Position numbers and translations under genes: made by a program. From assembly GCA_905478765.1 (NCBI GenBank), contig CAJQJY010000014.1:47605-111604 (forward strand): a stretch of DNA of 64,000 nt, given 5' to 3'. Of this stretch, positions 23,480 through 29,786 are shown piece by piece. This DNA comes from an uncultured Flavobacteriales bacterium (GTDB taxonomy: Bacteria; Bacteroidota; Bacteroidia; Flavobacteriales; BACL11). Each line of letters begins with the position of its first letter. Within the stretch, counting starts at the first letter, position 1. Under the pieces are notes generated by a model. The model had not been told where the DNA came from. It was given only the letters and a program-made list of their open reading frames with translations, and did not search any database.

Positions 23480-25117
<1,638 letters not shown>

Positions 25118-25399
25118 TTATTTTATGATTGCTAAAATGTCCGATTCTCTCATTATAAGATAATCTTTTCCTTCATGTTGTAGTTCAGTTCCTCCATATT
25201 TTCCGTAGAGGATATTGTCCCCAACTTTTACCGTTATGGGGTTGTCTTTTGTTCCTTTTCCGCAAGCAATTACGCTACCTTTTTGTGGTTTTTCTTGTGC
25301 AGTATCAGGAATTATTATACCGCTAGCAGTTGTAGTTTCTGCTTCCGCTTGTTTAATAATAACTCTATCAGCAAGTGGAGTAATGTTTATCTTTGACAT
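25118..25399 (-). CDS. groES: co-chaperonin GroES
   Basis: 93 aa. PLADRVIIK...[14 protein letters not shown] mobile-loop pattern. Immediately upstream of groEL. Confidence 0.95.
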
Positions 25400-25437
25400 A
25401 TTTATATAATTTAATTTGTTAATTCTGATGTATACTA

Positions 25438-25455
25438 TTGCATAAAGTATGCCAA
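25438..25455 (-). promoter_or_regulatory. candidate sigma-54 (-24/-12) promoter in the groES leader
   Basis: Minus strand reads TTGGCATACTTTATGCAA. TGGCA and TGCA are spaced so that GG and GC are separated by exactly 10 nt (consensus TGGCAC-N5-TTGCA). The GC lies about 40 nt upstream of the groES ATG. Confidence 0.4.
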
Positions 25456-25525
25456 AGCAATATCAGCACAAAATAACTGAAATTATGTCAGATAAACTTA
25501 CAAAATAGGAAAATGTGTTGTTTGC

Positions 25526-25846
25526 TTACTCGCCAGCAGGTGCAGCAGGTAAGTTAGGGATTACAGCATCATCAATCATGTCTTGAGCTTTTATTTCAGT
25601 TGATTCTATAGTATTGTTTCTTGGTATTGCAAAGTTTGATGCTAATGATAAAACAATTAATGCAGTTGCCAAAAACCAAGTTGCTTTTTCTAAAAAGTCA
25701 GTGGTCTTTTTTGCTCCCATTATTTGGTTGCCTGCCCCACCACCAAATGATGAAGATAACCCTCCTCCTTTAGGATTTTGAACTAAAACAACTAATACTA
25801 ATAAGATTGAAGTGATGATAATTAGGATTGCAAAAATTGTGTACAT
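25526..25846 (-). CDS. secG: preprotein translocase subunit SecG
   Basis: 106 aa, two TM helices flanking a Gly-rich loop (LVQNPKGGGLSSSFGGGAGNQIMG). Confidence 0.75.
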   Translation of the reverse strand: MYTIFAILIIITSILLVLVVLVQNPKGGGLSSSFGGGAGNQIMGAKKTTDFLEKATWFLATALIVLSLASNFAIPRNNTIESTEIKAQDMIDDAVIPNLPAAPAGE

Positions 25847-25847
25847 T

Positions 25848-26519
25848 TTATTTTTTATTTAATTTATTTATCAATTTAATTTGTTCTGCAAAGAAACTAC
25901 TTTTTTCTGGATATTTCAGAATTAATTTCTCATAAGCTAAAATAGCTTTACCATAATGCTTTTGCTCTAGGTAAACCTTTGCTAATGTTGGGGTAACTAA
26001 TTCATTATTTTTTATCAGACTTTCTTTAGCAGCATCTGATGCTTTAAAAAATACTTCTTTTTTTGGTCTGCTTATTTTTACTTCTTTTTCTAAAAATTTA
26101 TTAACCAAGTTAGTTGCTTTAGTTTGTTCTTCTCTTTCAACTTTCTTAACTTTTATTAAAGTTAGCCATTCCGAAAATGAGTGATTATCACCTTCAGAAA
26201 ACTCCAAAGGTTTTCCAATCTCTAATTGTTCTTTAGCTGTTTCTGTTTTTTCTTCCTTGCTAATTATCGCTTCAGATTTTGTGATGTTGTTTAAAGTAAT
26301 TAAGCTAAAAAGTTTCTGTCTGTCCAAGCAATAAGCAGCAGCTTTTTTAAGCTGTCGGTTATATCTAATGCTGTTAGTATTCAATAATCCTTTGGTTAGT
26401 AAAAGTTGTGCGCTACTAAAATAGGGGTGTTTTATTAGATAAGCATCTAATTTACTGACATCAGCATTCGTTATTTCTTGCGGATTATTAATTAAGGATA
26501 TGAATTTTTCGTTTACCAA
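25848..26519 (-). CDS. hypothetical protein with C-terminal TPR-like motif
   Basis: 223-aa ORF in tight operon context. C-terminal AKVYLEQKHYGKAILAYEKLILKYPE is TPR-like. No family recognised. Confidence 0.5.
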   Translation of the reverse strand: MVNEKFISLINNPQEITNADVSKLDAYLIKHPYFSSAQLLLTKGLLNTNSIRYNRQLKKAAAYCLDRQKLFSLITLNNITKSEAIISKEEKTETAKEQLEIGKPLEFSEGDNHSFSEWLTLIKVKKVEREEQTKATNLVNKFLEKEVKISRPKKEVFFKASDAAKESLIKNNELVTPTLAKVYLEQKHYGKAILAYEKLILKYPEKSSFFAEQIKLINKLNKK

Positions 26520-29624: not shown

Positions 29625-29786
29625 TCTTTACGTATAATTAATTGCAAAAATAGTAAAAATATGACAATGTGTCAGTATATCATTTTACTTATATTATAAA
29701 TAATATAATGGAAACTGACACAATTTTTTGTTTTTTTTATGTCAAAAAAGTTTTTTTAATTTGCACAAAATTCAAAGACAAAAAAT

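Follow-up and report, generated by a model that had tools for sequence, protein, structure and literature searches.

A probable sigma-54 promoter of groES-groEL in an uncultured Flavobacteriales bacterium, with a helically phased upstream palindrome that may be read by the neighboring activator

In a 64-kb stretch of DNA from an uncultured Flavobacteriales bacterium (GenBank assembly GCA_905478765.1, contig CAJQJY010000014.1; hereafter the window, meaning this whole stretch), the chaperonin operon groES-groEL very probably carries a sigma-54 (RpoN) promoter at 25454-25439 on the minus strand, which we read as the local copy of a promoter type of Bacteroidota proteostasis genes. This reading rests on phylum-wide conservation of the element, on a published transcription start at the orthologous motif, and on an intact sigma-54 activator gene nearby. 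Upstream of the promoter lies a conserved 15-bp palindrome, CTGACA-N3-TGTCAG, which is probably the binding site of the regulon's regulator and a second copy of which precedes the activator's own operon. The features on which the promoter reading turns are the following.

25454-25439, minus strand: probable sigma-54 -24/-12 promoter element TGGCATACTTTATGCA, with GG at 25453-25452 and GC at 25441-25440 (direct reading, matrix)
25429-25426, minus strand: predicted transcription start, 11-14 nt past the C of the -12 GC (drawn from the Flavobacterium psychrophilum start)
25399-25118, minus strand: groES, 93 aa (Pfam Cpn10, E = 1.4e-32)
25111-23480, minus strand: groEL, 543 aa (Pfam Cpn60_TCP1, E = 2.8e-81), starting 7 nt past the groES stop and listed as co-transcribed with groES

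The groES leader runs for 126 nt from the secG stop (25526) to the groES ATG (25399), the length given in the initial annotation of this DNA, and reads ...TCTGACATAATTTCAGTTATTTTGTGCTGATATTGCTTTGGCATACTTTATGCAATAGTATACATCAGAATTAACAAATTAAATTATATAAATATG on the minus strand. That annotation had proposed a sigma-54-type element here, and direct reading finds it as described: minus-strand positions 25455-25438 are TTGGCATACTTTATGCAA, and the GG and GC doublets are 10 nt apart, as in TGGCAC-N5-TTGCA. The element itself, TGGCAT-ACTTTA-TGCA (25454-25439), differs from TGGCAC-N5-TTGCW at 3 of the 12 specified positions, with both doublets intact. Taken alone, the core motif is no more than chance. TGGCA-N7-TGCA occurs twice in the window vs. 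0.53 occurrences expected, a count reached or exceeded in 8 of 100 shuffles, and sites within three mismatches of the strict consensus number 66 vs. 47.8 expected. The significance of the element comes only through its conservation.

To assess this conservation, we assembled a set of 80 groES loci that covers Flavobacteriales, Cytophagales, Bacteroidales, Chitinophagales, and other groups and yielded 78 usable leaders. A TGGCA was present no more than 200 nt from the groES ATG in 77 of the 78, while 0.26 would be expected per 200 nt on one strand. As a control for bias, we considered only the 42 leaders with exactly one TGGCA; every one of them has a G at +13 (background 0.24) and a Y at +5 (background 0.45). 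The count matrix of the leaders reads T-TGGCA-Y-A-n-TTT-nn-G-(A/C), with the GG invariant, and the promoter is conserved across at least three orders and keeps a fixed distance to groES. We then used a log-odds matrix built from 75 other groES leaders, leaving out the window and its closest relative, an uncultured Flavobacteriales metagenome-assembled genome (MAG; locus L001, GroES identity 97%). On this matrix, the window element scored 21.6 bits of a possible 25.1 (ortholog median 21.0) and ranked first among ~128,000 window positions, the runner-up reaching 13.9 bits. When 1.5 Mb of positions were scanned, 68 of the 76 matches of at least 15 bits fell in groES leaders. A matrix scan of orthologous groES leaders had been put forward as a check on the original proposal, and both this concentration of strong matches and the near-universal TGGCA speak for a conserved motif.

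One further candidate was considered and rejected. The string TGGCACGCTAATTGCT (24638-24623, minus strand), which lies inside groEL and encodes GTLIA, is an exact textbook sigma-54 consensus and scores 13.9 bits on the phylum matrix. A scan for strong hits found no match of that kind at the corresponding position of the other loci, and the string is probably a coincidence.

The promoter has a mapped precedent. Guerin et al. (2021, ISME Commun; PMC9723704) determined transcription start sites in F. psychrophilum and described a class, SM4, with "typical -24/-12 elements of sigma-54," whose promoters include those of groES-groEL, lon, dnaK, grpE-dnaJ, htpG, clpB, and skp. Their supplementary table gives the groS promoter as AAAaaatgtcagttttaaatccTTGGCATAATTTCTGAAAAGacaataacagcattaaaac and places start 867211, with a Sig54 probability of 1, 30 nt before groS at ...aaatgtcagttttaaatccTTGGCATAATTTCTGAA... 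(PMC9723704). Taking the start as base 51 of the 61-nt promoter strings, as judged from the sigma-A entries of the same table, we infer from the table layout that the groS start lies 13 nt past the position equivalent to the C of GC. This distance fits sigma-54 and not a sigma-A -7 box, for which the start lies ~3 nt past the G. By analogy with this mapped start, transcription in the window should begin ~28 nt before the groES ATG, giving a predicted 5' untranslated region of ~27-30 nt; the start previously placed ~29 nt before the ATG was therefore a reasonable estimate. The literature also reports groESL, dnaK, grpE-dnaJ, htpG, and lon to be co-expressed in one cluster with a high basal level.

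The F. psychrophilum groS locus resembles the window in the gene order activator, lptE, secG, groES, groEL, in a common TTGGCAT-A-N-TTT-NN-G element with an upstream ...TGTCAG half-site, and in a short leader (30 nt from the mapped start there, ~28 nt from the predicted start here). It differs at -12, where the window has a canonical GC (TGCA) and F. psychrophilum has TGAA, and in the position of the palindromic box, which in the window stands one helical turn further out (-22) than in F. psychrophilum (-11); the palindrome is not mentioned in the F. psychrophilum paper (PMC9723704). A 2025 survey in PLoS One (PMC12316311) describes an enrichment in Bacteroidota, strongest in Flavobacteriia, of predicted sigma-54 promoters at GroES, GroEL, DnaK, DnaJ, GrpE, and IbpA, and it cites earlier work for a sigma-54-dependent GroES in B. 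thetaiotaomicron. Planctomycetota, too, are reported to have sigma-54 promoters at chaperone genes. The window locus is one more instance of the chaperone promoters of the survey, which is purely matrix-based and, in the passages considered here, includes no upstream element, activator assignment, or helical phasing. A sigma-54 promoter of groES-groEL is thus a phenomenon already published for this phylum; the earlier remark that such control of a chaperonin operon would be unusual is true of bacteria in general and fails for Bacteroidota, where start-site mapping (PMC9723704) and a comparative promoter survey (PMC12316311) have reported it.

Several observations weigh against the sigma-54 reading. 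The C of the -12 element is relaxed across the phylum (A in 39 and C in 28 of 77 leaders), a departure from the canonical GC. The F. psychrophilum evidence for groES consists of the start position and the motif, mutagenesis having been carried out on the remF promoter (PMC9723704), and the searchable literature yielded no results from rpoN mutants for groES itself. The rpoN gene is not among the genes of the window, and its presence in the genome is assumed from relatives. Finally, in one locus, L071, the whole arrangement is replaced by a sigma-A promoter. This MAG, labeled F. psychrophilum (positions 100-225), has neither a -24/-12 motif nor a palindrome before groES, and in its leader a sigma-A -7 box (TACTTTTG) comes after a terminator hairpin. 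Since this leader differs from the published F. psychrophilum promoter, L071 is either another species under a wrong label or a case of natural promoter replacement.

Could the -24/-12 likeness be fortuitous, with groES served by sigma-A polymerase or by read-through from secG? In the former case, a weak box of the -7 type in the leader would form the promoter, and the TTTG within the palindrome would be its -33 element. We judge this very improbable. It can draw on the insignificance of the core motif alone in the window and on the use of a sigma-A box by L071. A terminator scan of 25000-26000 detected none after secG, so that read-through from the miaB-secG operon into groES is possible in the window. 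The conserved Y-A-n-TTT-nn-G also bears a faint likeness to TAnnTTTG, which is given as the -7 consensus of F. psychrophilum sigma-A (PMC9723704), and stands ~20 nt past the TTTG of the box, the usual -33/-7 spacing. However, the invariant GG and the G at +13 found in all 42 single-TGGCA leaders are at positions that are no part of a sigma-A promoter, and the mapped F. psychrophilum start lies 14 nt past that G rather than the ~3 nt of sigma-A. The dnaK, clpB, and htpG members of the regulon (see below) read TGGCAC-N5-TTGA or TTGC, which is classical sigma-54 and lacks the T-run, and no exact TAnnTTTG occurs in the 126-nt leader of the window, where only two TATTTTG near-misses are seen, at -108 and -76. 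A generic sigma-70 scan of 25000-26000 returned 6 promoter-like sites vs. 5.0 in shuffles, Bacteroidota promoters being outside the scope of that scan.

In most relatives (e.g., L006, L009, L010, and L016), secG is followed by a strong terminator hairpin (AAAATGCCAAC...GTTGGCATTTTTT), and this hairpin is the source of the extra TGGCA in those leaders.

The initial annotation had further placed the element in the loop of an interrupted inverted repeat, which does not hold up as a feature.

25466-25425, minus strand: interrupted inverted repeat of the initial annotation; not a feature (fold and repeat-finder evidence)

The letters of CTGATATTGC ... GCAATA-N7-TCAG are present, but the segment, when folded as DNA, gives -3.9 kcal/mol vs. 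-3.65 ± 1.5 kcal/mol for shuffled sequence (z = -0.17), with 83 of 200 shuffles folding at least as well. The repeat is chance, an artefact of reading AT-rich sequence. That it is nevertheless a functional operator or DNA hairpin gating the sigma-54 promoter seems to us the least probable of the alternatives considered here. Both arms do exist as written, and L001 also has short A/T-rich complementary words flanking its promoter. Yet the fold energy equals that of shuffles, the repeat finder did not report the repeat at 25466-25425, the inner arm ATTGC reads ATCAC in L001, no equivalent bracket is seen in the other 75 leaders, and one arm is in part the -12 element itself. The annotation had also seen no CIRCE (controlling inverted repeat of chaperone expression), and rightly so: a search of the window and of the 78 groES leaders for TTAGCACTC-N9-GAGTGCTAA found no site with 4 or fewer mismatches out of 18, and the closest match upstream of groES has 8 of 18.

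Alignment of the leaders showed another block of conservation, close upstream of the -24 element; in most species, this block reads TGAAAnTTTGTCAGT and ends 11 nt before the T of TGGCA. In the window, it corresponds to the following feature.

25491-25477, minus strand: palindromic box CTGACATAATTTCAG, consensus CTGACA-N3-TGTCAG (10.6 bits on the box matrix; leader alignment)

The window box is as strong as its orthologs (median 10.4 bits). Across the phylum, a box of at least 7 bits lies within 90 nt in 70 of 77 leaders, as compared with a fraction of 0.11 of random 90-nt stretches. The distance of the box from the promoter is quantized: the majority class is at -11 (47 leaders), and the others follow at -22, -32, -43, -53, -63, and -74. 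Among the 23 leaders whose box lies further out than -15, circular statistics give a maximal resultant length of 0.857 at periods of 10.25-10.5 bp, and these boxes keep the phase of the -11 class. This value was reached by 0 of 20,000 permutations, a p-value that is optimistic because the sequences are related, although several separate lineages contribute. The window box ends at a distance of 22 nt from the T of TGGCA and occupies the second rung, one helical turn further out than usual. These properties suggest that the 15-bp palindrome is probably the binding site of the regulon's regulator. An upstream dyad with helical-face dependence that is confined to one regulon is what an enhancer, or upstream activator sequence, would show.

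Two side observations concern the surroundings of the box. The palindrome of the window is flanked by two copies of TATTTTGT (25500-25507 and 25468-25475, minus strand) at a spacing of 32 nt. Both fall one base short of a sigma-A -7 box and look like the right half of the palindromic box (TTTGT...); they may have been left behind when the box moved by ~11 nt in this lineage. Separately, many Flavobacteriaceae groES leaders (L009, L010, L017, L022, L046, L047, L050, L053, L061, and L064) carry a second palindrome, TAACGCTTAAGCGTTAA, right after the -12 element (17 nt), the arms of which covary between species (AACGC/GCGTT vs. AATGC/GCATT). Since the predicted start lies within it, this palindrome would act as DNA and is perhaps a candidate further operator. 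It is absent from the groES leader of the window.

We next searched metagenomes with the composite TTGTCAGT-N9-11-TTGGCAYA-N6-G, which gave at least 125 matches on at least 120 DNA stretches. Among the matches listed, the first downstream open reading frame (ORF) encoded GroES in 40 (42 by BLAST), DnaK in 15, HtpG in 8, ClpB or Clp_N in 6, a small protein with two UVR motifs in 3, and Lon in 1, with single cases of an HtrA/DegP protease and a BaxI/YccA-like protein; Pfam confirmed these assignments. The proportions of the gene classes are biased by the search pattern and by the listing, which leaves the presence of chaperone genes other than groES unaffected. The other 52 matches listed were mostly GC-rich chance occurrences, with a local GC content of 0.45 or 0.37 vs. 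0.30 in the chaperone class. Two properties separate the classes among the matches listed. The left half-site agrees at 4.08 of 6 positions in the chaperone class and at 2.2-2.6 of 6 in the chance class, and the gap is 9-10 nt in the former but spread evenly over 9-11 nt in the latter. In the chaperone-class sites listed, the left half was left unconstrained by the search pattern and still shows conservation, with G in 69 and A in 60 of the 73 sites, and this yields the dyad CTGACA-N3-TGTCAG. Conversely, the box is absent from the few other strong sigma-54 matches in the groES loci, indicating that it is not general to sigma-54 promoters.

Within this set, the UVR-motif protein (125-146 aa, two UvrB/UvrC motifs; L131:1859-2296, L142:1377-1754, and L149) has the composite ahead of its gene and is an uncharacterized member of the regulon; it might act as a feedback partner of the activator. 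In five metagenome contigs (L096, L141, L146, L183, and L200), clpB and dnaK lie ~2.7 kb apart on the same strand, each with its own palindrome and sigma-54 promoter, i.e., two independent composites per locus.

Which protein reads the palindrome? The initial annotation had pointed to a sigma-54 activator gene 1.5 kb upstream on the same strand, and this gene is indeed there. It and the second copy of the box are described by the following features.

28182-27010, minus strand: sigma-54 enhancer-binding protein, with AAA+ domain, lid, and Fis-type helix-turn-helix (HTH) (Pfam)
29675-29661, minus strand: second palindromic box CTGACACATTGTCAT, 37 nt before the miaB ATG (palindrome scan)
29652-29645, minus strand: sigma-A -7 box TATTTTTG of the miaB operon, 8 nt past the box (TAnnTTTG)

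The protein matches Sigma54_activat (PF00158, E = 4e-68), with an AAA+ domain that starts at residue 12 and is followed by an AAA lid, and it has the make-up of an enhancer-binding protein: Walker A (GESGTGKE at residue 40), a GAFTGA-type loop (GSFTGA at 87), Walker B (IFLDEV at 108), and a C-terminal HTH_8 of the Fis type (E = 5e-11, residues 350-388). Complete orthologs, 52 in number, measure 347-477 aa, and, with the AAA+ domain beginning at residue 12, there is no room for a sensory domain. The only NCBIfam alignment from end to end was with PspF (TIGR02974), at 279 bits vs. a cut-off of 443.55, and NCBIfam gave no equivalog for the protein; it is PspF-like in layout and not a PspF equivalog. 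Solved structures match only its AAA+ core, the PspF AAA+ structures doing so at E = 1e-59. In 59 of 80 loci, the gene is found upstream of groES in the same orientation, and the sigma-54 promoter and box persist where this synteny is lost.

The second box gives the reason for assigning the palindrome to this protein. Allowing at most two mismatches, the palindrome has exactly two matches in the window, one in the groES leader and one before miaB, the first gene of the activator's operon. In 753 kb of loci, at most one mismatch gives 29 matches, 19 in groES leaders and 10 directly before miaB, and none elsewhere. The box precedes miaB in 16 of 16 loci with enough sequence, and in all 16 a TAnnTTTG follows 7-19 nt past it (background 0.021). 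The gap to the -7 box is 7-8 nt in 3 loci, including the window, where the promoter reads CTGACACATTGTCAT-atttttac-TATTTTTG (29675-29645), and 15-19 nt in the other 13. In this majority class, a TTTG within the box lies 20-21 nt before the -7 box, the position of a -33 element, so that a protein bound to the box would cover the -33 region of the promoter of the activator's operon. A regulator gene behind its own site is the usual comparative-genomics signature of a cognate factor, and PspF and NtrC repress their own sigma-70 promoters through their own binding sites. Because a copy of the box precedes the activator's own operon, the palindrome may well be the binding site of this neighboring sensor-less activator, an assignment that we consider about as likely as not.

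Two further sites were seen near the activator's operon or its counterparts. A right half-site, TTGTGTCAGT (29716-29727, minus strand), lies ~55 nt upstream of the miaB palindrome and may be a second, weaker site. In a Bacteroidales locus (L057:1067-1084), a 16.2-bit sigma-54 motif, ATGGCATGTTTTATGACA, stands 43 nt before the activator gene with no palindrome, which suggests a different autoregulatory wiring in Bacteroidales.

A mechanism can be outlined as follows. Sigma-54 polymerase would bind the GG (-24) and GC (-12) doublets and form a closed complex, which would open only when an AAA+ enhancer-binding protein hydrolyzes ATP. If the assignment is correct, the sensor-less, PspF-like activator would bind CTGACA-N3-TGTCAG and reach the closed complex along a single face of the helix; the same protein on the miaB box would cover the -33 region of the sigma-A promoter and so regulate its own synthesis. 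For a protein that lacks a sensory domain, the most likely design is control in trans; speculatively, a stress signal could arrive through a trans-acting inhibitor that unfolded proteins titrate away, with DnaK, GroEL, the UVR-motif protein, and the 223-aa protein of the operon as candidate inhibitors. The action of PspA on PspF offers an analogy, as do the chaperones that titrate sigma-32, HrcA, and HspR. In its widest form, the proposal is that palindrome and PspF-like activator together make up the master switch of the heat-shock and proteostasis response of Bacteroidota, activating the sigma-54 promoters of groESL, dnaK, clpB, htpG, lon, and htrA from a site bound to one helical face, usually only ~10 bp from the -24 element, and repressing the activator's own operon. 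We put this forward tentatively, as a plausible reading that falls somewhat short of an even case.

A number of points weigh against these assignments of the palindrome and its reader. F. psychrophilum has three such activators. Classical sigma-54 enhancers typically comprise two or more sites at least 70 bp upstream, and the box is centered far nearer to the promoter, at about -44 (-55 in the window). One palindrome on its own would bring in a dimer and not a hexamer. Conservation of the activator's HTH, in which ELGISERTLYRK is invariant among 53 orthologs, was dropped as a link to the box, the motif being generic to Fis-type domains. In electrophoretic mobility-shift assays, moreover, Porphyromonas gingivalis RprY shifts groES, dnaK, and clpB promoter fragments and does not shift that of htpG (PMC3646045).

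The last of these observations leads to the chief alternative, which keeps the sigma-54 promoter but assigns the palindrome to a protein other than the neighboring activator, either a dedicated heat-shock repressor or an RprY-type regulator. A repressor would be a functional analogue of HrcA, HspR, or CtsR; an RprY-type response regulator would modulate the access of activator or polymerase. In either case, the miaB operon would be just another member of the regulon of that protein. In its favor, heat-shock regulons elsewhere are typically under repressors acting on promoter-adjacent inverted repeats, such as HrcA on CIRCE and HspR on HAIR (HspR-associated inverted repeat). The miaB box overlaps the sigma-A -33 region, a repressor-like position, a site centered at -44 is unusually close for an enhancer, and RprY, which shifts three of these promoter fragments in P. 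gingivalis, behaves as a repressor (PMC3646045). On the other hand, the helical ladder reaching out to -74 fits contact with one face of the polymerase and not steric occlusion. RprY belongs to the OmpR family, for which direct repeats are the usual target, and it failed to bind the fragment of htpG, a gene that has the composite in metagenomes. Outside the groES leaders, furthermore, the 10-kb loci have the box only before the activator's operon, the signature of an autoregulated factor. On balance, we consider a different reader unlikely, though a possibility of some weight.

The proposed activator circuit can be compared with known systems. With E. coli PspF/pspA, it has in common an AAA+ and HTH protein that lacks a sensory domain, and the self-repression of PspF at a sigma-70 promoter parallels the box over the miaB-operon promoter. 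Unlike PspF, the window protein falls below the family cut-off (279 vs. 443 bits) and has no adjacent pspA-like gene; its targets would be cytoplasmic chaperones and not a membrane-stress operon, and its site is much nearer the promoter. The HrcA/CIRCE, HspR/HAIR, and sigma-32 systems act on the same targets as are found here (groESL, dnaK, clpB, htpG, and lon), and in the first two a short palindrome likewise stands beside the promoters of a coherent regulon. In contrast to HrcA/CIRCE, however, there is no CIRCE here, and CTGACA-N3-TGTCAG is unrelated to it. Unlike HrcA, HspR, and sigma-32, the present arrangement has a sigma-54 promoter with an ATP-driven activator, and because such a promoter requires that activator, control is expected to be positive. 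We know of no report that implicates sigma-32, HrcA, or CtsR in heat-shock control of this phylum. RprY of P. gingivalis is a Bacteroidota regulator of chaperone promoters, and the absence of CIRCE was noted there too, as in the window; it is an OmpR-family response regulator and not a sigma-54 activator, and no binding motif has been defined for it (PMC3646045).

The remaining genes of the locus provide the setting. On the minus strand, the order is miaB, the sigma-54 activator, lptE, a 223-aa protein, secG, the leader, groES, and groEL, and the genes upstream of the leader are as follows.

29624-28179, minus strand: miaB (ORF coordinates, Pfam)
27010-26513, minus strand: lptE (ORF coordinates, Pfam)
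26519-25848, minus strand: 223-aa protein with no family match (ORF coordinates)
25846-25526, minus strand: secG (ORF coordinates, Pfam)
29624-25526, minus strand: probable miaB - activator - lptE - 223-aa protein - secG operon (ORF coordinates, Pfam, synteny)

Because all five genes overlap or abut, miaB to secG are probably one operon, which ends right before the groES leader. NCBIfam gave nothing for LptE, and Rfam had no match anywhere in the 64-kb window. The 223-aa protein (25848-26519, minus strand), encoded in the same operon as the activator, had no match in Pfam or NCBIfam; it is soluble-looking, its C-terminus appears TPR-like by eye, and it is kept between lptE and secG in 64 of 80 loci.

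In the searchable literature, which leaves most subscription journals outside it, we found no named heat-shock activator in Bacteroidota and no mention of the palindrome, its phasing, or the autoregulatory copy, an absence that is weak evidence. The value of the promoter finding is confirmation in one more, uncultured lineage, together with conservation over at least three orders. Beyond it, the interest lies in the palindrome, the helical ladder, and the second copy before the activator's operon, which make a Bacteroidota heat-shock switch directly testable. They supply a candidate answer to the question of which activator drives the regulon, in the form of a 15-bp palindrome, a rule for its position, a neighboring protein, and an apparent autoregulatory site. 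If this answer is true, Bacteroidota would have a heat-shock circuit built on sigma-54 with ATP-driven promoter opening, mechanistically unlike the textbook circuits of sigma-factor exchange and repressors.

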